Positions 2,070 through 29,523 of a stretch of 29,523 nucleotides of DNA are shown here, one piece after another. The notes below the pieces were generated by a model. It was not told the DNA's origin, searched no databases, and saw only the letters and a program-made list of their open reading frames with translations. Position 1 is the stretch's first letter. The number at the start of each line of letters is the position of its first letter. Source of the stretch: a virus (Duplodnaviria; Caudoviricetes); IMG/VR virus record IMGVR_UViG_3300043908_001268, positions 1 to 29,523 of that record; one strand, 5' to 3'. Made by a program: the position numbers and the translations under genes.

Positions 2070-4585
2070 TGCCATTTACTTCTGATATAAAAAAATCTAA
2101 TATAAAAGAAAACTGGCTTTTTGAATTAGAGTATTATAATGGAGATACTGGTGGAGATGGTGGCGGTGGTTTTGGTCAAATATTTTTAAGTAATGGAACA
2201 ACAGCATTATTAACAGCAGAAGCCTTAGATACATCTGAAACAACTATAACACTTGATACAAATACAATGTTTGAAATCGGTGATTTTATAAAAATTGATA
2301 GTGAAATAATGGAAGTAACTTCTGTAATAGTTGGAGAAAGTTCAAGCGTAGATATAACAGTAATAAGAGGAGCATTAAACACTACAGCAGCAACTCATAA
2401 TAATAATAGTACAGTTTTTTGGAATAATTATTTGGGGTTAGCTTTTTCTGATATTGTTTATAATAAAAGATTATACAAGGGGGCAGTATTAAATAATCCA
2501 TCTTTAAGAGAAAGCATTGACTTATATTCTTCAACCTCAAAGAGATCAAACATATCTATTCAGATACCAGATTTTGAATTTAAAGGCTTACCAATTAGCC
2601 AAGAATTAAATAAAACTCATCAATATATAAATAGGACTTGTTCAATTTATTCTATTGTAAATGATTCAGCTAGGGTTAAGATCGGATCATTTAGAGTTTC
2701 ATCAATATCAACAAATGGCAAAACAATAAATATTAATATGGCTACCTTTCAGCCTTGGGATAATTTAAAAGTTCCAAATGTAAAGGTCGAAACTACTGGA
2801 AGATATTTTCCCCTAGTTTATGGAGATTATACTGGTGTAGCTAGTTCTTTTGCATCTCCAGCATATATTGATACAATGCCAAATACTTTGTTCCCTGTTG
2901 AAGTGGATTCAACTTCATTTTATTTCTTTTGCCCTATTCACGAAGATATAGGTTCAACTGGTACACGATTAAGAGTTTATGAAAATGGATTTAATAAATT
3001 TACACCATTAGAAGTAAAGTTTGATGCAGAAAGTTATCGAGGTGGATTTGCATTAAAAGCAGAAACAAATCTAAGAAGAAGTTTTAAATTTAAACCTATC
3101 GGAACAATATCAACTGATTTTGTAAACCCAACAAATATATTTGATGCAACTGTAGATCATGGTGATAGTAATTCTTTTGGTACTTTGAACTTTGGGAGTG
3201 TAGGATCAACAACAACAAATTCATCTGATAATACTCAACCGATTGTATTAAATAAAGATACAACTTTTGAAATACCAGCTTTTGATGATCCGCCAGATAA
3301 AACTTCTACATCTGATAATCATGGATTGACTTTTGAGATTGTATGGAATATGATAAATTTTTTTGCTGAAACAACTGATCCAAATGAGTTTCAATATAAT
3401 AGAGTAACAGCTATTGATTTATCTGTGCCGGGATCAGAAACAACACTTACAAATGGATTATATACATCAGATTCTTCTGCATCTCAATCAGCACCGGGAG
3501 AAACAACAACAACAAGGACATCCTCTAAAGATATGGCTACGCTTTACAGTTCAAGCGGTGGATTTCCAGATGGTATAAAACTTAGATATAAAAGGGAAGC
3601 GTTTTCAACATCTGGATCAACTGATGTATCAATTCACCATGATACTGATGCAAATGTTTTAAAATTATATGATTTTAGATTTAAAGCAACTTTTGCAGTT
3701 GATAGATTTAATTTAGTATCTGATGGTAATGAAAGGATTAAAAATGTAAAATACCTATATTCTAATTCAGATGGATTTCAGCATGGCATTACAGGATTAT
3801 CTGGAACAGCAGATTCTATAAATGATGCTCACTTAGATTTATTAAATAGATTTTGCGATTTAGATGTCCCAACAAATCCCAATACAGATTTAGAAGGTTG
3901 GAGTGCTTTGCATACAGTTAGGAATAATTGGTATCTTCGTTGGTGGTGTCATAGCCCAAAAGATTTAGGAAATATATTAGAACAGATGCAGTTTGAAGGA
4001 TGTTTTATTTTTAGATACAGATATGATGGTGAGCCTCAATATATCCATATACCTAATTCACCTAGTTCTGTTCTACAACTAAGCAAGAATGATATAAGTG
4101 ATATTAATTTATATTTATCTGATCCAAATGATATAGTCACAAAGATGAGCGTAAACTTTGACGTTCATCCAGAATTAAGAACATATCAATTTAATGTTAC
4201 ATCTTCAAACACTAATTCAATTACAAAGTATAATATTCAATCAAAAGAGAATGTTAGAAATATAGATTTAGATATGTTAGTTGCACAAATTGGAGATAGC
4301 AACCCAGTAGGTGAAGATAAGAACGATAATTTTTTAGCTTATCAAAATGCTCTATTTGGCGATATTTTTTTGAATGTAGAGTTTGATATAGTTAATCCAA
4401 GTAAGTGGGTAGATTCAAGCCTTAACCCCATAGAAGTTGGTGATATAATAGATTTTGATAATAGTAATATGTTTCCAGAAACTCCAATGGGATTTAACAA
4501 TGCAAGTTGGAGCAGTTTAAATTTTGTTATTTTAGAAATGAAAAGAACAGTAGGAAAGGTATCAGTTAAAGCAAGGAGTGTTTGA
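2069..4585 (+). CDS. Tail tip / baseplate-hub-like structural protein
   Basis: 838 aa, Ser/Thr/Asp-rich, immediately after the TMP; call rests on synteny. Confidence 0.6.
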   Translation: MPFTSDIKKSNIKENWLFELEYYNGDTGGDGGGGFGQIFLSNGTTALLTAEALDTSETTITLDTNTMFEIGDFIKIDSEIMEVTSVIVGESSSVDITVIRGALNTTAATHNNNSTVFWNNYLGLAFSDIVYNKRLYKGAVLNNPSLRESIDLYSSTSKRSNISIQIPDFEFKGLPISQELNKTHQYINRTCSIYSIVNDSARVKIGSFRVSSISTNGKTININMATFQPWDNLKVPNVKVETTGRYFPLVYGDYTGVASSFASPAYIDTMPNTLFPVEVDSTSFYFFCPIHEDIGSTGTRLRVYENGFNKFTPLEVKFDAESYRGGFALKAETNLRRSFKFKPIGTISTDFVNPTNIFDATVDHGDSNSFGTLNFGSVGSTTTNSSDNTQPIVLNKDTTFEIPAFDDPPDKTSTSDNHGLTFEIVWNMINFFAETTDPNEFQYNRVTAIDLSVPGSETTLTNGLYTSDSSASQSAPGETTTTRTSSKDMATLYSSSGGFPDGIKLRYKREAFSTSGSTDVSIHHDTDANVLKLYDFRFKATFAVDRFNLVSDGNERIKNVKYLYSNSDGFQHGITGLSGTADSINDAHLDLLNRFCDLDVPTNPNTDLEGWSALHTVRNNWYLRWWCHSPKDLGNILEQMQFEGCFIFRYRYDGEPQYIHIPNSPSSVLQLSKNDISDINLYLSDPNDIVTKMSVNFDVHPELRTYQFNVTSSNTNSITKYNIQSKENVRNIDLDMLVAQIGDSNPVGEDKNDNFLAYQNALFGDIFLNVEFDIVNPSKWVDSSLNPIEVGDIIDFDNSNMFPETPMGFNNASWSSLNFVILEMKRTVGKVSVKARSV

Positions 4586-5619
4586 TGGCAAATAATGATG
4601 TAAAAATACCAAAATTCTATCCAGATATAATAAATCATTTAATGGCTACTGGTACTGCTCAAGATGGTAATTTTGATTTAATGAGTGGAACAGATTTAAT
4701 AAGTTCTTTAAATGCTGGAAGTGAAGCAGAGTTGTTTGATATGAACCCACTCAATCAAGTTCATTTTGAAACTTCTGCTAGTTCTTCAATTAGAGCAGAT
4801 CATGTTCTTTTAAACATAAATACAGGCGGAGATTATACAATAGATTTTGTTGCAATATTAAATCATAATCTTAATAGCTGTAATGGCAAATTTAGAATAG
4901 CCCATGCTGCAACTGCTGGAGCGATAGATAGCGTAGCAGAAATGGAAGATGGAACTGCAACAAGAGTAAATAATGTAACAGAAGTAGTAAATGGTGATAG
5001 TATAAGTAATAATATAGTGATCCCAGCAGAAAATGGGTCAACCATTGTAACTTTTGATGCAAATGATGCTCAATACTGGGGTATTCAATTTGAAGGGAAT
5101 ACAAGTTTTGACTCTTCAAATGATTTAAAAATAGGTTGTGTTTTGCTTGGTGAATCTTATCAATTACCTCATGCTGATTTAAATGTAAAAAGAACAATAG
5201 TCTATGATGGTGTGAATTTACAGGAATCTCTAGGCGGTCAAAGATATACAGTATCAACTCAAACTGGTAAACAATTTGTAAACTCTAATTCAAAATCACC
5301 ATTTGTTAGGGCAACAAATCAAGCCAGAGTTTATAACGGTAGATTAGGATATGAGTTTTCTGCATCTTATCTAAATTCTAGTGATGTTATGCCTCCAGAT
5401 TATTCTCAAGTTGTAGCGAATGAAACAACAGATAGCGTTGTTGCTGATCTTTATAATAGAACATTAGGAAACAGAATACCCTTCTGTTTTACTACTGATT
5501 CAACAAGTACAAGTGAAGCAGATTATATATTTGCAAGATTTGTAGAAAATAGCATCGAAATGACTCAAGTCGCTTATACAATGTATAATGTATCTTTTAA
5601 AATAGAAGAAGAGTATTAA
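4585..5619 (+). CDS. Tail-tip (distal-tail-like) structural protein
   Basis: About 344 aa from the ATG at 4585, which overlaps the upstream TGA. Beta-rich, ends YNVSFKIEEEY like distal-tail-type proteins. Last gene of the tail cluster. Confidence 0.55.
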   Translation: MANNDVKIPKFYPDIINHLMATGTAQDGNFDLMSGTDLISSLNAGSEAELFDMNPLNQVHFETSASSSIRADHVLLNINTGGDYTIDFVAILNHNLNSCNGKFRIAHAATAGAIDSVAEMEDGTATRVNNVTEVVNGDSISNNIVIPAENGSTIVTFDANDAQYWGIQFEGNTSFDSSNDLKIGCVLLGESYQLPHADLNVKRTIVYDGVNLQESLGGQRYTVSTQTGKQFVNSNSKSPFVRATNQARVYNGRLGYEFSASYLNSSDVMPPDYSQVVANETTDSVVADLYNRTLGNRIPFCFTTDSTSTSEADYIFARFVENSIEMTQVAYTMYNVSFKIEEEY

Positions 5620-5663
5620 GGGGCATACTAGCCCCTTATAAGAGGCTAAATAACAAGTACAAG
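5617..5663. repeat. Inverted-repeat element and degenerate copy of the putative origin at 9468-9517; may also end late transcription
   Basis: TAAGGGGC-atacta-GCCCCTTA perfect 8-bp stem, then AGAGGCTAAA and AACAAGTACAAG. Aligns to 9468-9517. Confidence 0.75.
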
Positions 5664-5715
5664 TATAAGTTTTTATATATTATATATATGTGAAAAAATA
5701 AATTTAAAAAACTCT

Positions 5716-5743
5716 TTGACATTTAATATTTTGTGTTTATACT
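5716..5743 (+). promoter_or_regulatory. Sigma70-type early promoter
   Basis: TTGACA (5716-5721), 16-bp spacer, TATACT (5738-5743), A/T-rich upstream tract. Confidence 0.75.
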
Positions 5744-5777
5744 TAGGGGAGATGATAGATAACTTAAACAACAAATT

Positions 5778-5836
5778 TAGCGATACCTCGGTGATAAGCC
5801 TACCATACCTATCATCTCCAACCGGGGTATCTGCTA
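5778..5836 (+). ncRNA. Putative structured regulatory RNA (antisense or switch RNA) in the early leader
   Basis: TAGC-GATACCTCGGT (5778-5792) pairs with ACCGGGGTATC-T-GCTA (5821-5836). The 28-nt loop contains CTATCATCTCCA, complementary to GGAGATGATA sites elsewhere. Confidence 0.6.
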
Positions 5837-5853
5837 CTAATGGAGATGATAAA

Positions 5854-6111
5854 ATGAAAATTACAGTAAATATAAATACAAATTGTGAATTTATACAAAA
5901 TGGAGTTTATGATGATTCAGGTAACTTTATAGTTGATGAGACTAGACCATTAGATTTATATGAATTAGATCTTTTAATGGATCAAGTAAAACAATCTGTC
6001 ATTGAACTTGCAAGCACTAAATTTGATTATAACAACGCATTAAGAGCATCAAATGGTGAGTTAGTTGGTAATGTAAAAATACAATCTAAAAAGTTATTAG
6101 GAGGCAAGTAA
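5854..6111 (+). CDS. Hypothetical early protein (first gene of the early operon)
   Basis: ATG 5854 follows the GGAG SD at 5842-5845. The track's TTG start at 5716 is the -35 box. Confidence 0.7.
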   Translation: MKITVNINTNCEFIQNGVYDDSGNFIVDETRPLDLYELDLLMDQVKQSVIELASTKFDYNNALRASNGELVGNVKIQSKKLLGGK

Positions 6112-6401
6112 TGGAAAGTAAATTACAATTTAAAACAAAAGTAGTTCCTAAATATGATAGACAAGATTTTTGGTTTCCTTGTTATACAGCTTGGGATTAT
6201 GATAAAGATATTGATATTGTAATATCAAAACTGCATGGAACTTGGAGAGTTGGAATTTATAGAGAAAATATTGATTGGCAACCTCACCCAGATAGAGGTG
6301 GATATGTTGGAGCATTTAAGACTTTATCAAAGGCAAAAGAAATAATTAATGATGTTTTAACAAATAGCGATTTAAATTATTATTTAAAAGGGGGCAAGTA
6401 A
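6111..6401 (+). CDS. Hypothetical early protein
   Basis: 96 aa, GGAGG SD, TAATG coupling at both ends, flanked by GGCAAGTAATGG repeats. Confidence 0.75.
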   Translation: MESKLQFKTKVVPKYDRQDFWFPCYTAWDYDKDIDIVISKLHGTWRVGIYRENIDWQPHPDRGGYVGAFKTLSKAKEIINDVLTNSDLNYYLKGGK

Positions 6402-6511
6402 TGGGTAAGATAAAAAACCTAGTAATTGAATTAGGTGAATATGGTGCTAAGAAATATCTAGAAGAAATTAGGGAACAAATTAAGAGGAAGAAAAAAAATG
6501 GAAAAAAATGA
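6401..6511 (+). CDS. Small hypothetical protein (36 aa, MGKIKNLVIELGEYG...)
   Basis: Manually found; TAATG coupling and G-rich SD; fills the gap between genes. Confidence 0.6.
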   Translation: MGKIKNLVIELGEYGAKKYLEEIREQIKRKKKNGKK

Positions 6512-6773
6512 TTTATTTGAAAGGTATGAAAGTTTTCTTTATTATCTTATGAAAAAAACAGAATATGAAAAAGATAAAAACTTAAATGAAGATAAGTATA
6601 TAATTAAATTACTCACCCTTAGAAATAGTATCCTTAGAGAAATAAATATGTTAAATATATATAATGAAACTGAAAATGCTAAAAAAAATATTTGTGAAAA
6701 TTGCAACAATGAAAATTTAATTCAATATTGCAACAGTTGTAGTGATGAGGATATAGTAAGGGAATTAAACTGA
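6498..6773 (+). CDS. Hypothetical protein with C-terminal Cys cluster
   Basis: CENC...CNSC Zn-ribbon-like motif; GAGG SD. Confidence 0.65.
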   Translation: MEKNDLFERYESFLYYLMKKTEYEKDKNLNEDKYIIKLLTLRNSILREINMLNIYNETENAKKNICENCNNENLIQYCNSCSDEDIVRELN

Positions 6774-6907
6774 TGAAAGTACCAAAAACAATAATACTAG
6801 AAAAGCCAGAAAATATGAGTACAGTACGATTCAAACTTATAACAGAAAGGATCGTAAAAGACCTAGAAGAATTGGGAGTTAAAGTTGAAAGATCAAGTAC
6901 CTCATAA
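6773..6907 (+). CDS. Small hypothetical protein (44 aa, MKVPKTIILEKP...)
   Basis: Manually found; TGATG coupling; AAGGGA SD. Confidence 0.6.
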   Translation: MKVPKTIILEKPENMSTVRFKLITERIVKDLEELGVKVERSSTS

Positions 6908-7130
6908 CTTCCCTTATCATGCAGAAATAAGGTATGAATCTGAAAGAGGGTTTAACTATGTTTCTGCATTAGGGGAATCATTAATAGATTTAATTGAAGA
7001 TATTAAATTTCAGTTAAATAATTACGCTCATAGATTGCCAGAGTTAGAAGTAGTTTATGAATTGCCAAACACAAAAAGAAAAGATATTACTGACAAAGTA
7101 AGATCGTTATTAGGAGATGATAATGGATAA
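6885..7130 (+). CDS. Hypothetical protein
   Basis: 81 aa, TTG start with GGGAG SD. Confidence 0.65.
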   Translation: MKDQVPHNFPYHAEIRYESERGFNYVSALGESLIDLIEDIKFQLNNYAHRLPELEVVYELPNTKRKDITDKVRSLLGDDNG

Positions 7131-7242
7131 ATTAGAATTATGGCTAATGACATTTGTATTTTATTTTATTAAAGTTGCACCCTATATTGTAGTTGCAGCC
7201 TTAATGAATTTAATTATTCAGCTAATAATCTTTATTTATTAA
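7123..7242 (+). CDS. Small membrane protein (39 aa, MDKLELWLMTFVFYFIKVAPYIVVAALMNLIIQLIIFIY)
   Basis: Manually found; AGGAG SD within a GGAGATGATA motif; hydrophobic; TAATG coupling to the next gene. Confidence 0.65.
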   Translation: MDKLELWLMTFVFYFIKVAPYIVVAALMNLIIQLIIFIY

Positions 7243-7580
7243 TGTATAAAGCAGAAATAAATGAAATTTTTAGGCTTCTTAAAATGTCTATTAATACAAG
7301 TTTAAAAATATTAACTGAATTAAAAGAACTTCAAATAGCAATAAATACAGTATATGATGGAGTTGAGGATAGATTTACAAACAAGATTAAAAAGTATAAT
7401 AAAAAAAATAAAATTATGACTATTAAGGATGTTTGTAAATATTCGACTCTGTCAATGTCTACTATAAGAAGGGCAATTAAAACAAAAGAATTAAAATATA
7501 CTAGCGGTGGTGGAAAGTATTTATTTACAAAAAAATCAGTTGATAGCTGGTTAAGGGGGAGAAATGCAAGATACAAGTAG
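7242..7580 (+). CDS. Excisionase-type (HTH_17-like) DNA-binding protein
   Basis: MTIKDVCKYSTLSMSTIRRAIKTKELK...KYLFTKKSVDSWL pattern. Confidence 0.75.
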   Translation: MYKAEINEIFRLLKMSINTSLKILTELKELQIAINTVYDGVEDRFTNKIKKYNKKNKIMTIKDVCKYSTLSMSTIRRAIKTKELKYTSGGGKYLFTKKSVDSWLRGRNARYK

Positions 7581-7827
7581 ATTAGCATATAGGCAAATTC
7601 AAAGCGAAGGGATTGCAGCGACACAAAAAGAAATCATTTATAATCTTTGTATAGATTATCCAGATGGTTTGAGTTTAAGGGAAATAGTTAATAAAACAGA
7701 TATAGATATAAATGCGGTATCTGGGAGAGTGAACGATCTTAAAAAAGATGGTTTATTAACAACAATAGAAAAAAGAAAATGTAATATTACTGGCAGATTA
7801 ATCAATCCGGTTATTACATCAAATTAG
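7564..7827 (+). CDS. Winged-helix DNA-binding protein
   Basis: GLSLREI...INAVSGRVNDLKKDGL...RKCNITGR pattern of small phage wHTH proteins. Confidence 0.7.
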   Translation: MQDTSRLAYRQIQSEGIAATQKEIIYNLCIDYPDGLSLREIVNKTDIDINAVSGRVNDLKKDGLLTTIEKRKCNITGRLINPVITSN

Positions 7828-7837
7828 GGAGTCAATT

Positions 7838-8401
7838 ATGGCATTTTTGCAAATTAAAAAAGATTATCATTTAGATAAACCTCTTATAGTTCGATTGGAC
7901 CAAGATCCAATTGATGTAAGGGGTGAAAAAAATAGATTTGATAATCTTGAATTTAAAATACTAGCTACAAACTTAGGTGAAGATTATGATGCAGCACCTT
8001 ATGGAGACAAAGAACCTTTCACGATAAGAAAGGGAGATCAGTTTGATTTAGTTATGTCTAGCACCTTGCATAAAAAAATAAATGATTATGAGAAAGGTGA
8101 GGCGGTACATATTGAACTAACAAAACAAAATGAAAGATTATTTTGGAAGGTACAAGTCGCTGGTGATGTTTTAATTAAAGAACATAAAGAGAATCCTCCT
8201 AGTAAAGATAGATCATTAGATATTAAATGGGGAATGGCTTTTAATAATGCTACAAGGTTGGCTTGTTCTAGTAATATTAATAACTCTACAAAAGATAAGG
8301 TTGAATTAATTGCTGAAATAATGCCTAGAATGTTTCAGATCGCTTGTACAATGGAAACAGCTTTAAAAGACTCAAAAGAGGAAGAAGATGCTCCATTCTA
8401 A
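7838..8401 (+). CDS. Putative single-stranded DNA-binding protein
   Basis: Acidic C-terminal tail EEEDAPF resembles SSB tails; lies in the replication module. Confidence 0.45.
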   Translation: MAFLQIKKDYHLDKPLIVRLDQDPIDVRGEKNRFDNLEFKILATNLGEDYDAAPYGDKEPFTIRKGDQFDLVMSSTLHKKINDYEKGEAVHIELTKQNERLFWKVQVAGDVLIKEHKENPPSKDRSLDIKWGMAFNNATRLACSSNINNSTKDKVELIAEIMPRMFQIACTMETALKDSKEEEDAPF

Positions 8402-8543
8402 GTATAAATTAACACAAGCATATTTAATTAAATTTTATGATGATTTAGTTAAAAAGGGCAAAGTTAAAGAAGGCGGTTATGCTCACAAAAGACTCAAAGA
8501 ACTTGTATTAAAAAAACACTTTGAAAAAACATCAAAGAAATAA
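8388..8543 (+). CDS. Small hypothetical protein (51 aa, MLHSKYKLTQAYLIK...)
   Basis: Manually found; GAGG SD; fills the gap between genes. Confidence 0.55.
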   Translation: MLHSKYKLTQAYLIKFYDDLVKKGKVKEGGYAHKRLKELVLKKHFEKTSKK

Positions 8544-8877
8544 TCTTAATAAAATACTTCGTGAGTTAGTTATGAAAAGGGATAAGTGTTGTCTTAAATG
8601 CGGAAAAAATACTTCCTTGCACATGAGCCACATTTATCCCAAGGGTCGATATAGAAAGATGCAGTTTGACCCAGATAATGTAAAAGCATTATGTTTAGGC
8701 TGCCATTTATATTGGTGGCATAAACACCCCATAGAGGCTAAGGAATGGGCGGTAAAAGCATTAGGTAGGGCAAGGCTTAACAGATTGAAAAAAAGAGCAA
8801 ATACAATAGATAAAACACTTTGGAATTATGAAGAAATTAAAATTAAATTAGAAAAACAAATTAAGGAGATGAAATGA
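8521..8877 (+). CDS. NinG/Rap-like HNH endonuclease
   Basis: RDKCCLKCG...MSHIYPKG...FDPDNVKALCLGCH Zn-HNH pattern. Confidence 0.75.
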   Translation: MKKHQRNNLNKILRELVMKRDKCCLKCGKNTSLHMSHIYPKGRYRKMQFDPDNVKALCLGCHLYWWHKHPIEAKEWAVKALGRARLNRLKKRANTIDKTLWNYEEIKIKLEKQIKEMK

Positions 8878-9131
8878 TAAGTAAACAAGAAGAATTAAAA
8901 CACAGCGTAATTTTATTACAAGATGCGACAAAAACATTATTTCAAAAATTAAAACATAAAAAATTTAAAAAGAGAACATTGGTTCAAATAGAGTCTGCAT
9001 TTATGGATTTAATAGGTGTTATTACTACTAGTACTTTTGATGATTTTGATGAGTATCAACTATATGTTAAGCGTGTAAAAAGAGAAATACATGGGCATAT
9101 TGAAGATATGAAAAAAAAGTTTATGGCTTAA
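8874..9131 (+). CDS. Hypothetical protein
   Basis: 85 aa, AAGGAG SD, ATGA overlap. Confidence 0.7.
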   Translation: MISKQEELKHSVILLQDATKTLFQKLKHKKFKKRTLVQIESAFMDLIGVITTSTFDDFDEYQLYVKRVKREIHGHIEDMKKKFMA

Positions 9132-9132
9132 A

Positions 9133-9960
9133 ATGGCTAAAAGATTTACAGATACCGAGAAATGGAAAAAATATTGGTTTAGAACACTAAGCAACGATCA
9201 TAAAGTATTCTGGTTTTATTTGTTAGATAACTGCGATCATGCTGGAATCTGGGAAGTAGATTTCGAGTTAGCAGATTATTTTTGCAAGGGAGTAAATGAG
9301 CAAGAAATAAGATCAATATTCAAGAAACAATTTATAGAGTTTGATAATAAAAAACGCTGGTTTATCAGAGATTTTTTAGATTTTCAATATGGTGATCTTA
9401 AAGAAACTAACAGGATGCACAAATCAGTAATTACTAGATTACAAAAATACAACTTAATTAAATATATGGGGCATATAAGCCCCTTAGATGGGGCTAAAGA
9501 AAAAGAACAAGTACAAGATAAAGATAAAGTAAAAGAAAAAATAAAAAAAAGAGAAGAAAAATTCTGTTTAGAAGCGTTTTCATTTGTAGATTCTAAAGGC
9601 TATGATAAATTAGAAATAGGTAAATTTATTAACTTCTGGACTGAAAAAAATAAATCCGGGTCAAAAATGAAGTTTGAGATGCAACAAACTTTTGATATTT
9701 CCAGAAGGTTAGCTAGGTGGATGTCTAATATAAAAGAATGGAAGATAGACAAACCTAAACAAGTAGAACAGTTTAAGAAAACTAAAACTGGTTTATATAT
9801 TGCATACTGTCAAAAATGCGGAACAAAAAATTATCCAAATGAGTACCAGCTTAAACAGCAAAGTTGTTGCGGTGTTGATTTCTTGCCAAGTAAACCAGAA
9901 CCAGATAAACATAATCAACCAGAACTAGATGCAAAGATAATAGCAAAGGTTTTTAATTAA
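9133..9960 (+). CDS. Phage replication initiator protein (lambda-O-like organisation)
   Basis: N-terminal AKRFTDTEKW...YLLDNCDHAGIW domain, central inverted repeats with a low-complexity KEK/KDK linker, FWTEKN...FDISRRLARW domain and a Cys-rich tail. Confidence 0.7.
   Translation: MAKRFTDTEKWKKYWFRTLSNDHKVFWFYLLDNCDHAGIWEVDFELADYFCKGVNEQEIRSIFKKQFIEFDNKKRWFIRDFLDFQYGDLKETNRMHKSVITRLQKYNLIKYMGHISPLDGAKEKEQVQDKDKVKEKIKKREEKFCLEAFSFVDSKGYDKLEIGKFINFWTEKNKSGSKMKFEMQQTFDISRRLARWMSNIKEWKIDKPKQVEQFKKTKTGLYIAYCQKCGTKNYPNEYQLKQQSCCGVDFLPSKPEPDKHNQPELDAKIIAKVFN
9468..9555. other. Putative replication origin within the rep gene
   Basis: Alternating GGGGC / AGCCCC / GGGGCT inverted repeats followed by a strand-asymmetric A-rich tract. 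Confidence 0.55.
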
Positions 9961-10214
9961 TGGACTTTTTTAAAGAATTTGATAGAAGAAGAGATGTCGC
10001 TTATCAAACAAAAGAAGTATTAAAAGTATCAGATGCCAAAGCAGCAGATAATGATATTTACTATTGTACAAAATGCAAAAGATGCTGGGAAATAAATTAT
10101 ATTGCTTTTAAAAACAGGAAAGATCGAGACAAGGAACAAAGTAGTTATCTAAATTATTATTGTGATTTTCCTACTTATGGAAAGAAACGAAAAATTTGCA
10201 AATGGTGTAAATGA
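9960..10214 (+). CDS. Small Zn-finger hypothetical protein
   Basis: CTKC and CKWC pairs. Confidence 0.7.
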   Translation: MDFFKEFDRRRDVAYQTKEVLKVSDAKAADNDIYYCTKCKRCWEINYIAFKNRKDRDKEQSSYLNYYCDFPTYGKKRKICKWCK

Positions 10215-11155
10215 TGACTTGCCCTCATTGTTACAATACTGATGTTAAGAAGTATGGATATAGATATAACAAAGGTATTGCAACTTCTAGGGTTTACAAA
10301 TGTAAAAGATGTAATAAAAGATTTAGTCAATTATTTGAAGATAGGGCAAAGGAATATCACGATCAGATGCCTAATATACTTATCTTTGATATAGAAACCA
10401 GTTTAATGGAAGTTTATGTATGGGGATTATATAAACAGTTTATTTCTCATAATAACATTATTAAAGATAAAAATGGTGAATTTAAAAGTTGGTTTATGTT
10501 ATCCTATGCTGCAAAATGGCTTTATGATGATAATATACTTAGCGACATAGTAACACCAGAAGAGGCAAGAAATCGGGATGATAAAAGAATACTAGAAAGC
10601 ATCTGGTTATTATTAGAAAGAGCAGATATTGTAATTGCTCATAATGGAGATAGATTTGATCTTAGAAAGATAAATGCTAGGTTTATAAGTAATGATATTA
10701 AACCCCCTACAAGTTTTAGGACTATTGACACCCTAAAAGTAACAAGAAGGAATTTTGCATTTGAAAGTTATAAACAAGATTTTTTAACTAAAAAATTCAA
10801 ACTGCAAGAAAAAAAAGAAACTGGTGGAATTGATTTATGGATAGAAGTTCAACAGGGAAACCAGAAAGCAATAGATAAAATGCTTGATTATAATATCCAT
10901 GATGTAAAAGGCTTAGAAGATTTATATTTAAAGATAAGACCTTATATTAAAAATCATCCAAATTTAGGGGTTATGTTAGATGAAGATGTTTGCCCTAATT
11001 GTGGATCGCCAAATCTAGAAGAAACTAATTCTGAATATTTTACTTCTGCAAATAGATTTCCGGTTTTTAGATGTTCTGATTGCAAAACACCATATATACG
11101 ACATAAGAAAAATTCAAGTACACGATCAACTAATATAAGAAGTGTACCAACATAA
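10211..11155 (+). CDS. RNase H-fold DEDDy 3'-5' exonuclease with N- and C-terminal Zn ribbons
   Basis: FDIETS (ExoI), HNGDRFD (ExoII), YNIHDV (ExoIII); CPHC..CKRC and CPNC..CSDC. Confidence 0.85.
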   Translation: MMTCPHCYNTDVKKYGYRYNKGIATSRVYKCKRCNKRFSQLFEDRAKEYHDQMPNILIFDIETSLMEVYVWGLYKQFISHNNIIKDKNGEFKSWFMLSYAAKWLYDDNILSDIVTPEEARNRDDKRILESIWLLLERADIVIAHNGDRFDLRKINARFISNDIKPPTSFRTIDTLKVTRRNFAFESYKQDFLTKKFKLQEKKETGGIDLWIEVQQGNQKAIDKMLDYNIHDVKGLEDLYLKIRPYIKNHPNLGVMLDEDVCPNCGSPNLEETNSEYFTSANRFPVFRCSDCKTPYIRHKKNSSTRSTNIRSVPT

Positions 11156-11227
11156 TGCCCTCAAAACTAGATAATTATTTGGAATGTTTGATGACAAACT
11201 CTAGTGTGGTTGGCTACCAAGAGGGCA
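11156..11227 (+). promoter_or_regulatory. Multi-stem structured leader occluding the methyltransferase RBS
   Basis: TGCCCTC/GAGGGCA, ACTAGA/TCTAGT, GTTTG/CAAAC and TGGT/ACCA nested stems. Confidence 0.5.
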
Positions 11228-11235
11228 AAATTTAA

Positions 11236-11877
11236 ATGAAAATATTAAACTTATATGCTTGTTTAGGCGGTAATCGCTATAAGTGGGGAGATAAACATGA
11301 GATAACTGCTGTTGAATTGGATGAAGAAGCCTCAAAATGTTATCAAGAAAGATTTCCAAATGACAAAGTAATAGTAGCAGATGCTCACCAGTATTTGTTA
11401 GATCATTATAAAGAGTATGATTTTATTTGGTCATCTCCACCATGTCCAACACACAGCAGGATCAATATTAGTCAATACACTCGCTCAAATTATAAAATGA
11501 AATATCCAGAAATGGGTTTATATCAAGAAATAATTTTTTTAAAACATTATTTTACTGGAAAGTATTGTGTTGAAAATGTGATTCCCTTTTATGATTTATT
11601 AATACCCGGTCAAAAAAGAGGAAGGCATATATATTGGACTAATTTTACTTTGCCTGGCATTTTAACAAAAAGAAAGAATCCAGATTTAAGTAGGACTCCA
11701 GACTTAATAAATGTTTTATCAAAGTTCCATGATTATGATTTTTACAAATATAAAGGGAAACAAAGTAGAGCAAAAATGGCTAGAAATTTAGTTGATTATG
11801 AAGCTGGCAAAGTTATATTAGATACAGCTATGGGAATAGAAAAAAAAATGAATATAAAACAAGTTTCATTATATTAA
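11236..11877 (+). CDS. DNA (cytosine-5) methyltransferase, short phage type
   Basis: Motif I LNLYACLGG, catalytic WSSPPC, VENV. Confidence 0.85.
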   Translation: MKILNLYACLGGNRYKWGDKHEITAVELDEEASKCYQERFPNDKVIVADAHQYLLDHYKEYDFIWSSPPCPTHSRINISQYTRSNYKMKYPEMGLYQEIIFLKHYFTGKYCVENVIPFYDLLIPGQKRGRHIYWTNFTLPGILTKRKNPDLSRTPDLINVLSKFHDYDFYKYKGKQSRAKMARNLVDYEAGKVILDTAMGIEKKMNIKQVSLY

Positions 11878-11891
11878 AAAAGGAGAGTGAT

Positions 11892-12035
11892 ATGAGATAT
11901 TATTTTGAAGCATTATTTAGTACAGAGTACTTTCCTTATTGGGAATTTACAATTCTTTGTGTTTTAATAATGAACTTATCCATGATTATAAGATTGCATA
12001 GAATTGAAAAAAAAATAAATGGGAGCAAAAAATGA
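11892..12035 (+). CDS. Small membrane protein (47 aa, MRYYFEALFSTEYFPYWEFT...)
   Basis: Manually found; AAGGAG SD; one hydrophobic segment. Confidence 0.65.
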   Translation: MRYYFEALFSTEYFPYWEFTILCVLIMNLSMIIRLHRIEKKINGSKK

Positions 12036-12169
12036 TATTTACATTAGATATATATGAATGGATAGTTAATTTTTTATTTTTAGGAATGGCAGTTGCAATA
12101 TGGATAATTCCACTTTCATTATGCTTTTGCTGCCTAGTTTATTGTTTAAATAAATATACAAATATATGA
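12032..12169 (+). CDS. Small membrane protein (45 aa, MIFTLDIYEWIVNFLFLG...)
   Basis: Manually found; GGGAG SD; ATGA overlap; hydrophobic. Confidence 0.6.
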   Translation: MIFTLDIYEWIVNFLFLGMAVAIWIIPLSLCFCCLVYCLNKYTNI

Positions 12170-12176
12170 GGCGTAA

Positions 12177-12467
12177 ATGATCCAAAAAACCGAACCTTGT
12201 CCTTTGTGCGGAAAGGATGAAACCAGTTATGAAAGAACATTAGCAGATAAAAGGGAACAAGAAAATTACATGAAGGCTTTTATGGCTGGTAGAGAATCAA
12301 TAGGGTTACTTTCAAAAAGAGAAAACCAGATATTCAATTACTTTTTTAGGGAAGGAATAAGAGACTTTAAAAAAATAGCTAGGCTTTTATCTATTAAACC
12401 CTATACAGTTGAAACTTTTTATGATAGAGCCATGAACAAAATACTAACACTTGAATTTGAGATATGA
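12177..12467 (+). CDS. Sigma70 region-4 / LuxR-type HTH regulator (possible late activator)
   Basis: LSKRENQIF...FKKIARLLSIKPYTVETFYDRAMNKI; N-terminal CPLC. Confidence 0.65.
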   Translation: MIQKTEPCPLCGKDETSYERTLADKREQENYMKAFMAGRESIGLLSKRENQIFNYFFREGIRDFKKIARLLSIKPYTVETFYDRAMNKILTLEFEI

Positions 12468-12814
12468 AGGTAGATATGTTTTTTAAATTAGCTGATGAAT
12501 TATTAGATGAATGTAAAGAAATCCAGATATTAAAAGGTCGTGAGTATTGCATTGATGATGGTACTGATTCAGTTGATAAATTTGAAAACTTTAAAAGCAT
12601 AGGCAAAAGATTAAAACTTGATCCTAAAATAATATTGATGGTTTATTTACTTAAACACATAGATAGTATTACAACCTTTGTATTATATGGGAAGGAAGGA
12701 ACAGAAGGAACAAAGGGAAGAATACAGGACTCTATTAATTATCTTACCATGCTACATGGATTAATAAAGGAAGAAAAAGAAGAAGCTTTATTAGTTAATG
12801 TCCTAAAAAAATAA
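12464..12814 (+). CDS. All-alpha NTP-pyrophosphatase-like protein (DUF1599/Nmad-type)
   Basis: KGREY...NF...KH.DSI...GRIQDSINYL pattern. Confidence 0.55.
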   Translation: MKVDMFFKLADELLDECKEIQILKGREYCIDDGTDSVDKFENFKSIGKRLKLDPKIILMVYLLKHIDSITTFVLYGKEGTEGTKGRIQDSINYLTMLHGLIKEEKEEALLVNVLKK

Positions 12815-12827
12815 ATTGTAATATTTC

Positions 12828-12856
12828 TTGTATCTTAAATTTTACTGTTTTATATT
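12828..12856 (+). promoter_or_regulatory. Sigma70-type promoter of the moron gene
   Basis: TTGTAT (12828-12833), 17 bp, TATATT (12851-12856). Confidence 0.6.
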
Positions 12857-12891
12857 AAGTCATTAATTAACTAATTATTATGGAGATGATA

Positions 12892-13341
12892 ATGAATTAC
12901 ACTAAAACACAATTTAATAACTTAATAGAAACAATGTCTTACAAGTTTGGTTTACATCCAGATGAGTTAAATTTTGGAGAATGGACTAATGACAGCCTTT
13001 ATGCTTTAAAAGATATAAGCCTTGTAGAGGATATTCTTAATTCTTTAAATAATGAGATGTATAAAAAAGAAGAATATGAAGAAAACTATAAGGTTAGACT
13101 TGCTCCAGCTTTTTGGGCGGAAGATGAATATATAGATTATATTGTTAATGATTGTATAGATACCGAAGCTAAAAGATATATAAAACTTCCAATATTTAAA
13201 GGAAAAATACATAAAATGTTTTTAGATTTTGTTGATCCTATGATTTATTCTTTAGGTGAAAAACTATTTAATAATATTATTAAATTTAGACATGGAAGAG
13301 TAAAAGACATTAAATTTAAAACAGATTATGTAGTATACTAA
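12892..13341 (+). CDS. Hypothetical protein in an independent transcription unit (moron)
   Basis: ATG 12892 follows TGGAGATGATA; own promoter and terminator; acidic and aromatic; no motif recognised. Confidence 0.75.
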   Translation: MNYTKTQFNNLIETMSYKFGLHPDELNFGEWTNDSLYALKDISLVEDILNSLNNEMYKKEEYEENYKVRLAPAFWAEDEYIDYIVNDCIDTEAKRYIKLPIFKGKIHKMFLDFVDPMIYSLGEKLFNNIIKFRHGRVKDIKFKTDYVVY

Positions 13342-13371
13342 ATCCAACAATACTTTAACTTATAAGAAATT

Positions 13372-13398
13372 AAGCCACTATTTTGTAGTGGCTTTTTT
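13372..13398 (+). terminator. Intrinsic terminator
   Basis: AAGCCACTA-ttttg-TAGTGGCTT followed by a T run. Confidence 0.85.
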
Positions 13399-13445
13399 GT
13401 ATATATAGAGGGATGATCTCCCTTACTCGCAATTTAATTTAATAG

Positions 13446-13679
13446 GTGTGCGATAGAATGGAACAAGATCAAGGCTTTGTCGGCAAAGCAAATAACAATG
13501 AAGTTCCGGACATTATGGAGAATACTCTAAATGTTGAACTTGTAGGAATTAAGAACTTAAAAACTACTCATAATTGGCGGTTAGAATTTGATGTCTTTGA
13601 AATGGACAGCAGTAAAGTAAAAAACTTAATGGATAAGATTAATACAGCTTTAGTAATGGTGCTTGTAGAAAATGGATAA
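13446..13679 (+). CDS. Hypothetical protein upstream of TerS (true start may be 13458 or later)
   Basis: Open frame overlapping the TerS start; start codon uncertain. Confidence 0.6.
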   Translation: MCDRMEQDQGFVGKANNNEVPDIMENTLNVELVGIKNLKTTHNWRLEFDVFEMDSSKVKNLMDKINTALVMVLVENG

Positions 13680-14004
13680 ACAAACGCTCAATAAACGCCA
13701 GAACCATAAACCAAATGGAGATTTTGCAAAAGGCAATAAGATAGGTAATAGATGGAAGAAAGGACAATCTGGTAATCCAAATGGAAGAAGAAACGCATAT
13801 ACTGATTTAATAAAAGAATTTAGTTTTACAAAGGTAGGCGATAAAGAGAGAAGAGATATTATTGTTAATAAACTTTTTCAATTAGCAGAAAGAGGAGATT
13901 TAAATAGTATTAAGTTTATTGTAGAAAGATTAGAAGGCAAGTCTAGGGAGACTAGGGAAGTAACTCATAAAACAGAACCGATCCAGATAATGAGTATTGA
14001 TTAA
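13672..14004 (+). CDS. terS: Terminase small subunit (DUF5681-type)
   Basis: GNRWKKGQSGNPNGR motif, helical C-terminus, upstream of TerL. Confidence 0.75.
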   Translation: MDKQTLNKRQNHKPNGDFAKGNKIGNRWKKGQSGNPNGRRNAYTDLIKEFSFTKVGDKERRDIIVNKLFQLAERGDLNSIKFIVERLEGKSRETREVTHKTEPIQIMSID

Positions 14005-29321: not shown

Positions 29322-29523
29322 GTTATGCTGTGTGGCATTGGGTTTTTGATAGAGATAGCCACCAACAATATACGCTCCCTTATATCGCTCAATCCCCTAT
29401 CTCAAAGAAGAAAAAGGAGTTTGCAACCATAGATGATATTTGGAATGAAATCAAACTTATTACTGAAAGCACAAAATTTAGTATTGGTCAGCAACTATTC
29501 TATTTATTACCACTATTTGCAAA
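29300..29523 (+). CDS. -1 frame extension of the tail chaperone, continuing at 130-328
   Basis: A AAA AAA G at 29300-29307; the -1 frame RRWGLSYAVWHWVFD... stays open through the junction. Confidence 0.7.
29398..29523. repeat. Terminal direct repeat, right copy
   Basis: Identical to 4-129. Confidence 0.95.

Follow-up and report, generated by a model that had tools for sequence, protein, structure and literature searches.

Positions 5748-5856 of the window (the complete stretch of 29,523 nucleotides analysed here) are likely to form the leader of an early operon with a hairpin conserved in relatives, and comparison of the sequences supports this hairpin as a real, conserved and strand-specific RNA element. 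The loop of the hairpin ends in an antisense segment that displays perfect complementarity to two targets of 11 nt each: T1, at the predicted 5' end of the transcript, and T2, which coincides with the ribosome-binding site (RBS) of the first early ORF. This T1/antisense/T2 arrangement is not a product of chance. In addition, T1 contains an AUG that opens a reading frame through the leader; both the AUG and the open frame are new here, having escaped the original prediction.

Most of what is known about how virulent phages regulate their early genes concerns proteins and nucleases. If this reading is true, an RNA able to base-pair with the two ribosome entry sites of the early mRNA would be a compact RNA-based means of timing or limiting early expression; at least five lineages retain the element, and sister phages have a counterpart in a second hairpin that looks unrelated. 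All members belong to uncultured marine phages, and the element is a lead for surrogate-host experiments rather than an established system.

Architecture of the leader and its distant matches

The leader and its immediate surroundings comprise the following features.

5620-5635, + strand: short G+C-rich hairpin right behind the stop codon of the final tail gene (4582-5619), a weak terminator candidate
5716-5743, + strand: predicted early promoter (-35 box 5716-5721, 16-nt spacer, -10 box 5738-5743)
5748-5758, + strand: T1, the 5' target, 11 nt, complement of 5810-5820, with an AUG at 5752-5754
5752-5853, + strand: leader frame, 34 codons beginning at the T1 AUG and in phase with the 5854 start codon
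5759-5777, + strand: linker from T1 to the stem, 19 nt, A/U-rich, unpaired
5778-5792, + strand: 5' strand of stem P1 (15 bp), pairing with 5821-5836
5809-5820, + strand: antisense segment, the final 12 nt of the 28-nt loop, adjoining the P1 3' strand with no gap
5821-5836, + strand: 3' strand of P1, with a bulged base at 5832
5841-5851, + strand: T2, the downstream target, 11 nt, complement of 5810-5820
5854-6111, + strand: first early ORF, 85 aa, no family match, a variable slot

Every coordinate that the original prediction gave for the stem, the loop and the complementarity proved correct on recomputation. The P1 stem includes one G-U pair (5788 with 5825) and the single bulge at 5832. T2 spans the Shine-Dalgarno bases 5842-5845 together with the spacer before the start codon 5854-5856. 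The ORF at 5854-6111 is missing in L032 (97% identical), where the leader adjoins the counterpart of 6111-6401.

The predicted promoter matches the consensus at 11 of 12 positions and is the best of 55 promoter-like sites in 4500-14000, a number of sites that is itself at chance level (55.6 expected). Its hexamers recur in lineage G010, whose promoter also scores 11/12. The T1 AUG sits 8 nt past the predicted -10 box in the window and 7 nt past it in G010, and the same spacing is seen in L061, L316 and L040 (read by eye). The leader ORF begins at the predicted 5' end, and it is devoid of a Shine-Dalgarno of its own. The window frame stays open in 9% of shuffles, and the corresponding frame is open in all five lineages at a per-lineage chance of 0.09-0.18, probabilities that do not multiply cleanly because the lineages share ancestry. 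The window, L040, L316 and G010 have this frame in phase with the main start codon; in the L061 type and L046 the stop codon of the leader frame shares one base with the main start. The encoded peptide differs strongly even between L316 and G010.

The 10-mer core of the targets is found in exact copies on the + strand at 5748, 5842, 7113, 12882 and 21437, and on the - strand at 5810. Allowing up to one mismatch raises the number of sites to 14 (2.95 ± 1.61 expected), a level reached by none of 100 shuffles (maximum 8). Dinucleotide shuffles of 5744-5856 (n = 2000) produced an inverted pair of at least 11 nt once and the three-part arrangement never. The distant copies belong to the following features.

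7113-7122, + strand: RBS of a 39-aa hydrophobic ORF (7123-7242), 10 nt complementary to the antisense segment
12881-12891, + strand: T3, RBS of ORF 12892-13341, with 11-nt complementarity to the antisense segment, part of a distinct short unit that closes the early region
13372-13394: terminator behind ORF 12892-13341, from the terminator scan
21436-21446, + strand: 11-mer copy inside a 979-aa ORF (20354-23293), in the coding frame, missed by the original prediction

The copy at 21436-21446 is probably incidental. Those at 7113 and 12882 confirm the distant RBS matches proposed earlier, and the latter match is conserved in a sister lineage: an RBS of the T3 type occupies the syntenic place in G001, G002 and G003, before mostly different genes. 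The match in this lineage extends over 12 nt, and between it and the window the base on the 5' side of the Shine-Dalgarno core and its antisense partner differ jointly. The counterpart of gene 7123-7242 in the sister lineage displays no equally long match, and in G009 and G010, where the antisense segment is changed (records 65% and 84% complete), no RBS elsewhere matches over at least 9 nt. Thus, the candidate trans targets show no co-variation except for the one base pair of G001-G003.

Folded alone, 5775-5840 reaches -21.3 kcal/mol, compared with -10.9 ± 2.6 for shuffles (z -3.98; equalled by none of 200). In the minimum-energy fold of the whole leader (-23.0 kcal/mol), 5748-5758 is paired with 5810-5820. 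The separate states are nearly equal in energy, at -18.6 kcal/mol for T1 with the antisense segment, -21.3 for the stem and -17.0 for the antisense segment with T2. The earlier suspicion that alternative folds exist is borne out by these close energies and by the T1-antisense fold being the minimum for the whole leader. The predicted pairings are mutually exclusive, and one of them would hide the Shine-Dalgarno, as in an attenuator. Only 4 nt (5837-5840) lie between the stem and T2, so that, on geometric reasoning, pairing of the antisense segment with T2 in cis would need an open stem.

Relatives with the same layout and with a second hairpin

The order of T1, a stem with the antisense segment in its loop, and T2 with a start codon is found in five lineages (class A), at the same late/early junction after the last tail gene. 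These are the window with L002, L032 and L313; L061, L062, L064 and L066; L040; L316 with G010; and L046. The T1 pairing covers 11-12 nt and the T2 pairing 8-11 nt; both reach at least 9 nt in eight of nine leaders, and the ninth has 12 and 8. Shuffled leaders of these lineages yield the triple 0-1 times per 2000, and a blind scan of 62 sources on both strands returned six matches, all six of them these junction leaders. MAFFT alignment of the class A leaders left the antisense segments out of register, and run-length scans with shuffles were used instead.

The bases beyond the shared core differ among lineages and change jointly in T1, the antisense segment and T2. The T1 extension lies 3' of the core and that of T2 lies 5' of it, each having its own complement in the antisense segment; such offset, co-varying extensions point to base pairing and not to three copies of one binding motif. 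Similarly, the sequence of P1 is different in every lineage, the stem being kept at the equivalent relative place, with G-U pairs that are valid on the + strand only, and a comparison of L061 with L062, and of L316 with G010, shows changes in both strands of the inner helix P2. The stem and the loop-target complementarity, whose presence in relatives the original prediction had named as decisive, are thus both kept through changes on both sides. The RBS coincides with the T2 copy in every lineage, and the linker is A/T-rich throughout (19-24 nt in four lineages, counted by eye). At the same junction, other relatives carry a palindrome over the promoter and a Cro-like first gene.

A different, covarying hairpin occupies this junction in 12 sequences (class B), where it lies upstream of the predicted early promoter and presents two distinct antisense segments, one for the 5' end and one for the RBS, which are the target types of class A too. 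RNAalifold predicts two helices, P1 and P2, in which both bases have changed in 10 of 18 pairs. When the stems are taken together with both long-range pairings (11 sequences), 96.8% of cells are paired and seven pairs are changed on both sides; none of 500 shuffles attains this level of pairing. The loop aimed at the Shine-Dalgarno region shows a two-sided change in L230 and a different pairing in L033. The predicted class B promoter is strong in L033 (11/12) and weak or absent, at chance level, in L005, L007, L008, L009 and L230; in L033 an 11/12 promoter lies directly upstream of the hairpin. A second leader containing both target types is located 7 kb further downstream in the class B genome G006.

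The class B covariance model R1, run over 51 sources, matched only its own building sequences, with no match in the window, L032, L040, L046 or the L061 type, so homology of the two hairpin types is not shown. Two pattern scans of viral contigs gave mostly chance matches. In the first, 5 of 114 loci were genuine, none of them new. In the second, 24 of 107 distinct stretches passed the filter and were inspected; eight of the 24 look class B-like, three of these on contigs already part of the comparison.

A possible switch and the competing readings

The reading tentatively preferred here is that the leader may act as an RNA switch, in which T1 and the RBS (T2) would compete for one antisense segment and so set which translation start is open, 5752 or 5854. 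From established knowledge, the antisense segment on T2 would hide the Shine-Dalgarno and block 30S binding, and on T1 it would free the Shine-Dalgarno and hide the 5' AUG. If a ribosome occupied the 5' AUG, or if the 5' end were lost, the antisense segment would be set free to pair with T2, and ribosomes in the leader frame would then reach the first gene through fusion or coupling. The T1 pairing is at least as long as the T2 pairing in every lineage, so that the switch alone would rest with the Shine-Dalgarno open. A switch acting only in cis leaves the conserved match at 12881-12891 unexplained; that hairpins whose loop is free additionally act in trans, by pairing with this RBS and with that at 7113-7122, is a rather doubtful addition. 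Since the class B antisense segments do not lie between two targets, the competition model cannot hold there as such. The class B hairpin would instead cover the two start signals of read-through transcripts or function as an RNA in its own right.

The main rival is a trans-acting antisense RNA cut from its own leader in the style of P4 CI and P1/P7 C4. It would accumulate and pair with T1 and T2 of newly made transcripts as well as with the 7113 and 12882 RBSs, either shutting off early genes late in infection or blocking a superinfecting phage of the same type. This reading, which is unlikely yet deserves a serious hearing, draws on the target/antisense/target order in one transcript, which is the P4 layout in the accessible part of PMC4825925, and on matching RBSs kilobases away, one of them syntenically conserved in G001, G002 and G003, where the 12-nt match includes the joint base change. 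It would also fit the position of the class B hairpin outside the early leader, with the 11/12 promoter of L033 just upstream, the second leader of G006 with both target types, and the cis T2 pairing in the window, which appears sterically hard. However, the T1 of each primary transcript would itself occupy the loop, G009 and G010 have no other RBS match of at least 9 nt, and the open leader frame is left unexplained. The lack of any Rfam match, C4 included, and of any sign of lysogeny also argues against it.

Both classes could be joined in a broader proposal, on present evidence an unlikely one, of a new phage family of RNAs that mask start sites. Its members would be a portable hairpin, antisense to a leaderless-type 5' AUG, to the early-operon Shine-Dalgarno and to the RBS of a second unit, and located either in the early leader or in a small-RNA gene of its own immediately ahead of the early promoter. 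The hairpin would serve virulent marine phages as a protein-free timer or exclusion device. The relatives provide natural test cases for mRNAs with a 5'-terminal AUG plus a Shine-Dalgarno start and for an antisense module that relocates relative to the promoter, and their lineage-specific matching triplets are in effect ready-made orthogonal pairs for specificity.

In a further reading, the T1-loop pairing would stack on the stem into a quasi-continuous helix of about 26 bp that protects the mRNA from 5'-end-dependent decay or forms an RNase III site, the likeness to an RBS being secondary. T1 begins at the predicted +1 and its pairing is nowhere shorter than that of T2, and in the window the antisense segment runs without a gap into the stem's 3' strand, which would allow such stacking. 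The reading is nevertheless improbable: T2 also co-varies with the antisense segment, which a stability element does not need, and class B devotes a separate loop to the Shine-Dalgarno region, with the two-sided change in L230 and the different pairing in L033.

It is more improbable still that the two direct copies and one inverted copy are DNA operators for a phage protein such as the HTH_17 protein (7242-7580). Such repeats around a promoter are a usual sign of operators, genes for HTH proteins lie nearby, and the other relatives combine a promoter palindrome with a Cro-like first gene at the junction. A single motif, however, predicts otherwise than T1 and T2 matching offset, co-varying parts of the antisense segment, and the inverted copy always lies in the loop of a stem that changes on two sides and has G-U pairs valid on one strand; moreover, the T2 copy is an RBS in every lineage. 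That the leader is merely the N-terminal coding part of the first gene, with functionless pairings, is suggested by the open frame from 5752 in frame with 5854, yet it is scarcely credible given that the frame ends at the main start codon in two lineages, that the genes behind the leader differ, that the peptide is not kept between close relatives and that the pairings are far beyond chance. A riboswitch or thermometer was set aside (no family match and no conserved ligand-type core), as was a packaging or origin site, in view of the strand specificity of the structure and its link to the RBS.

Relation to known systems and phage context

Rfam includes the C4 antisense RNA family (P1/P7 C4, P4 CI). 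No Rfam family reaches the gathering score in the window, and 5600-6000 gives no C4 match up to E = 10. Similarly, L061, L062, L033, L230 and L316 give no C4 match up to E = 1, and L005, L007, L008 and L009 have no Rfam match at the gathering score. The element is thus matched by no family in the window or its relatives, in agreement with the earlier suggestion of an undescribed RNA.

Translational attenuators of the erm/cat type possess a leader ORF and a segment that pairs either with an upstream competitor or with the Shine-Dalgarno region. The window leader resembles them in its ORF and in the alternative pairings with the Shine-Dalgarno region. In contrast to erm/cat, neither a stalling peptide nor an inducer is evident, the leader peptide is not conserved between L316 and G010, and the leader ORF, without its own Shine-Dalgarno, is fused in frame to the gene in three lineages.

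The original prediction had compared the leader with P4 CI and P1 C4, and the comparison stands as far as the layout is concerned. In P4, according to the accessible part of PMC4825925, the seqA and seqC targets flank the antisense segment in one transcript, and the CI RNA causes early transcription termination; C4 RNA acts on the c4-icd-ant operon (PMC8198154, accessible part). Here too a structured leader RNA shows an antisense segment with one target upstream and one downstream, in a single transcript if the predicted promoter is right. Unlike in P4 CI, the targets in the window are two translation start signals, and both P4 CI and C4 differ from this leader in that it has no Rfam match, no sign of lysogeny or immunity and an open reading frame along its length. 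The proposed immunity role is not supported: the two ends of the record are identical over 126 bases, so that it closes on itself, the family search found no integrase or repressor-type family among the window proteins, and 185,579 bacterial and archaeal genomes, in a search able to detect close relatives only, contain no relatives of the terminase or of the 339-aa protein. Regulation by RNA only likewise finds no support in the early region, which encodes an HTH_17 protein at 7242-7580 (43.6 bits) and two weaker DNA-binding candidates.

In T4 genes e, soc, 49 and I-TevI, the RBS is hidden in long transcripts and free in those from a promoter within the structure (accessible part of PMC3014915). 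Class B is similar to the gene e type in that its antisense arm lies upstream of the predicted promoter and the targets downstream, so that only upstream-derived transcripts would be masked. The timing, in contrast, would be reversed, with late read-through silenced and not early expression, and the class B arm is a hairpin with two separate antisense segments instead of a single strand of a simple stem. The antisense segment of the window is placed 66 nt downstream of the -10 box, which departs from the T4 layout. In E. coli mRNAs with a 5'-uAUG ahead of a Shine-Dalgarno-led cistron, ribosomes bind both sites and the uAUG can affect the downstream cistron (accessible part of PMC4965119). Similarly, an AUG at the predicted 5' terminus opens a frame ahead of the canonical start in the window; unlike the mRNAs in that part of PMC4965119, the leader carries a conserved antisense hairpin complementary to both start regions.

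The literature searched on phage antisense RNAs and early leaders, leaderless mRNAs and marine phage small RNAs, including accessible portions of a 2025 review (PMC12197685), does not show the element. The tRNA/tmRNA scan returned nothing. The cultured phage collection gave no DNA match for 5000-7500 and none for the tail protein, and in that collection the terminase has only distant matches (<40% identity). The short hairpin at 5620-5635 is not reported by the terminator scan because no T run stands behind it; a strong terminator is present at the equivalent site of a sister lineage.

The leader at the late/early junction

The hairpin described here keeps its antisense segments, one in class A (the layout of the window) and two in class B (a different hairpin in a second group of relatives), complementary to two places in the early mRNA, namely its predicted 5' end, which contains a start codon, and its Shine-Dalgarno region. 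Pairing at either target would block ribosome entry there. The IMG/VR record (29,523 bases, 32% G+C) has identical ends (4–129 and 29398–29523) although it is labelled 'linear, 92% complete', and thus closes on itself as an essentially whole genome of about 29.4 kb. Every called gene of the window lies on the + strand, and the main features are as follows.

About 13.4 kb, across the record ends, to 5619, + strand: structural block with terminase, head and tail proteins and lysis genes (gene calls, family matches)
5778–5792 with 5821–5836, + strand: stem P1, 15 pairs with one G-U and one bulge
5854–13341, + strand: block of small early-type genes, including an exonuclease-like protein, a methylase fragment and HTH proteins
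13372–13394, + strand: terminator 3' of the early block (terminator scan)

Since the structural block ends at 5619 and the early block begins at 5854, the leader element sits exactly at the late/early junction. Family searches matched none of the window proteins to an integrase or repressor family, the terminase and a 339-aa protein had no relative in 185,579 prokaryote genomes, and the phage collection searched held no close cultured phage; all phages carrying the element, of either class, are uncultured. Among the products of the early region, at 7242–7827 and 12177–12467, are an HTH_17 protein (43.6 bits) together with a weak winged-helix candidate and a small GerE/sigma-region-4-like protein, which from their sequences are possible phage transcription regulators.

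Re-reading of the sequence reproduced all coordinates of the original prediction. Stem P1 has a folding energy of -21.3 kcal/mol (z -3.98), and the final 12 bases of its 28-nt loop (5809–5820) form an antisense segment perfectly complementary, as had been proposed, to the 5' target T1 (5748–5758) and to T2 (5841–5851), which spans the Shine-Dalgarno bases and the spacer ahead of the start codon at 5854. The predicted promoter, the best of the region with 11/12 consensus matches, ends at 5743, thus placing T1 at the predicted 5' end of the transcript. The 10-mer shared by target and antisense occurs exactly six times in the window, and at 14 sites against 2.95 expected when one mismatch is allowed. 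Copies lie, as originally noted, at the ribosome-binding sites at 7113 (a 39-aa hydrophobic ORF) and 12882 (ORF 12892–13341), while the copy at 21437 is intragenic. Among 2000 shuffles of the leader, an 11-nt inverted pair arose once and the three-part arrangement never.

The suspicion that alternative folds exist was borne out by modelling, which predicts three nested states of similar energy: T1 with the antisense segment (-18.6 kcal/mol), the stem (-21.3 kcal/mol) and the antisense segment with T2 (-17.0 kcal/mol). The predicted minimum-energy fold of the whole leader pairs T1 with the antisense segment. By geometric reasoning the stem can stay formed while T1 is paired, since the antisense segment continues directly into the 3' strand and the helices could stack, whereas T2 cannot pair in cis with the full stem in place because only four bases (5837–5840) link them.

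The element belongs to no Rfam family, in line with the novelty originally suggested, and it does not appear in the accessible text of the literature searched, including a 2025 review of phage small RNAs. Its mode of working may resemble that of known antisense and anti-Shine-Dalgarno regulators. The layout equals that of P4 CI, but the sequence and structure differ, the lysogeny context is missing, the element aims at two translation start signals and it occurs in two genomic placements.

Co-variation and the open leader frame in class A

Near-identical records are limited to L002/L313, in which the leader is identical, and L032, whose tail protein is 97% identical to that of the window and whose two leader base changes both fall outside the paired parts. 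The slot 3' of the leader is variable: the first ORF of the window (5854–6111) is missing in L032, where the leader leads straight into the counterpart of the second ORF (slot at 702 onward). In G001/G004, G002 and G003 the slot holds first ORFs unlike that of the window and partly unlike each other.

A blind scan of the window and 61 loci, on both strands, for the three-part arrangement returned six matches (L032, L313, L040, L046, L314 and L316), all at the late/early junction. A gapped pattern scan added a sister lineage, L061, L062, L064 and L066 (genome records G001–G004), syntenic with the window at 25–76% protein identity, so that class A comprises five lineages. In every one, T1 (11–12 nt) lies just 3' of the -10 box and T2 (8–11 nt) covers the Shine-Dalgarno bases; the linker between T1 and the stem is A/T-rich (19–24 nt in the four lineages counted by eye). 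The stem sequences are unrelated between lineages, with the antisense segment towards the 3' side of the loop. The core common to T1 and T2 varies by lineage, and the antisense segment changes with it. Beyond the core, T1 is always extended on the 3' side and T2 on the 5' side, each extension having its own lineage-specific complement. These co-variations were measured by run-length scans rather than by structure-guided alignment. The inner helix P2 shows two-sided changes in two comparisons, L061 with L062 and L316 with G010, and only the + strand allows the G-U pairs of the stems.

Two lineages have additional potential pairings. At L061 1501–1522 the 3' strand of the stem offers a further partner for the antisense segment, giving a hairpin of 9 pairs with a T-rich tail, terminator-like in the scan and without equivalent in the window. 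L040 has two extra 8-nt complementary pairs (3621–3645 with 3723–3734) joining the region upstream of T1 to the 3' flank of the stem, a hint that the long-range helix may be longer, or the transcript may start earlier, in this lineage.

T1 contains an AUG in all class A lineages. Its distance past the -10 box is 8 nt for the window and 7 nt for G010 (both promoters 11/12), and 7 nt by eye for L061, L316 and L040. The frame opened by this AUG is free of stops across the whole leader (34–37 codons), while the other two frames close in the first few codons (stops at offsets of 0–18 nt). For the window, L040, L316 and G010 it continues in frame into the main start codon; for the L061 type and L046 its stop codon shares one base with the main start codon. 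Such an open frame arises in 9–18% of shuffles per lineage, the product over lineages being about 1e-4 to 1e-5, for lineages that are not independent. The encoded peptide differs between L316 and G010, whose RNA stems also differ; if anything is under selection, it would be ribosome passage and not the peptide. Ribosomes bind both sites on E. coli mRNAs having a 5'-terminal AUG and a Shine-Dalgarno-led cistron, according to the accessible part of PMC4965119.

Class B hairpins and second target units

Phages whose tail protein is 44–57% identical carry another G+C-rich hairpin immediately 3' of the tail gene (L005, L007, L008, L009, L026, L028 and L033, with L205, L230, L252, L257 and L293 from a pattern scan). 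Folded with RNAalifold, these 12 class B sequences share an 11-pair outer stem and a 7-pair inner stem, with two-sided changes in 10 of the 18 pairs. The Shine-Dalgarno region of the first early gene has its complement in the inner-stem loop; a segment about 12 nt further upstream, which holds AUG or GUG, has its complement in the strand between the stems. For the stems and the two long-range pairings taken as one set, the paired fraction over 11 sequences is 96.8%, with two-sided changes in 7 pairs, a score reached by none of 500 shuffles and no slid control. In the more distant L033 the sequences are different, yet by eye all four pairings are retained. The targets lie 100–130 nt downstream of the hairpin, beyond the predicted promoter. 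Promoter placement is firm only in L033, with 11/12 promoters before the hairpin and before the target; calls in L005, L007, L008, L009 and L230 are weak, at chance level. The class B covariance model did not match the window hairpin, and the two types are therefore analogous in layout, with homology unsupported. Between hairpin and predicted promoter, at L005 4169–4200 and correspondingly in other class B loci, lies a C-rich, G-poor tract with a recurring short motif, which may be a Rho loading site or a promoter element.

Other relatives lack such an RNA at the junction, some having an opposite-strand gene and some a palindrome over the promoter with a Cro-like first gene, a protein-based solution where other phages have the hairpin. 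Junctions were read by eye in 19/22 and 14/35 loci of two relative sets, the remainder being covered by the class B model and three-part scans only. The palindrome type was observed in L017–L021 and L024 (about 4060–4120 in each locus; tail protein 38–41% identical), overlapping a promoter-like site ahead of a Cro-like HTH first gene.

T3, the ribosome-binding site at 12881–12891, belongs to a short unit that ends the early region before the terminator at 13372–13394. G001, G002 and G003 have the same site at a syntenic place, with a similar leader before it and a strong terminator after it, and in their lineage T3 matches the antisense segment over 12 nt. Compared with the window, both the base just 5' of the Shine-Dalgarno core and its antisense partner are changed there, a single two-sided change. 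The genes behind T3 are mostly mutually unmatched, that of G003 alone resembling the window's (32% identity). Promoters of these units are weak or read by eye (9/12 in G001, by eye only in the window). In class B, genome G006 carries a further leader 7 kb downstream in which both kinds of target are present. G009 and G010, both incomplete records with a different antisense sequence, showed no second matching site. The T3 unit (12815–13394 in the window, 8040–8500 in L303) thus conserves leader and ribosome-binding site, with a terminator after, while the gene inside it mostly differs between relatives, like a cassette slot.

Competing readings of the leader

We tentatively favour a cis switch in which T1 and T2 of the window compete for the loop. 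With T1 paired to the loop, the Shine-Dalgarno sequence would be left open; were T1 unavailable, through a ribosome on the 5' AUG or loss of the 5' end, the loop would move to T2, leaving ribosomes that arrive via the leader frame as the only ones able to reach the first gene. The main rival, somewhat unlikely, is a released hairpin that would pair in trans with T1, T2, T3 and 7113 and so shut off early genes or exclude other phages, in the manner of the P4 CI and P1 C4 RNAs to which it was originally likened; this accounts better for T3 and class B and worse for the leader frame. For class B, an additional option by analogy is the logic of T4 gene e as presented in the accessible part of PMC3014915, in which only transcripts from upstream would be masked.

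A role in 5' stability or RNase III processing is improbable. DNA operators are very doubtful, the offset co-variation of the T1 and T2 extensions being what base pairing, and not a repeated protein-binding motif, would predict. A purely coding reading is the least credible, the leader peptide not being kept between L316 and G010.
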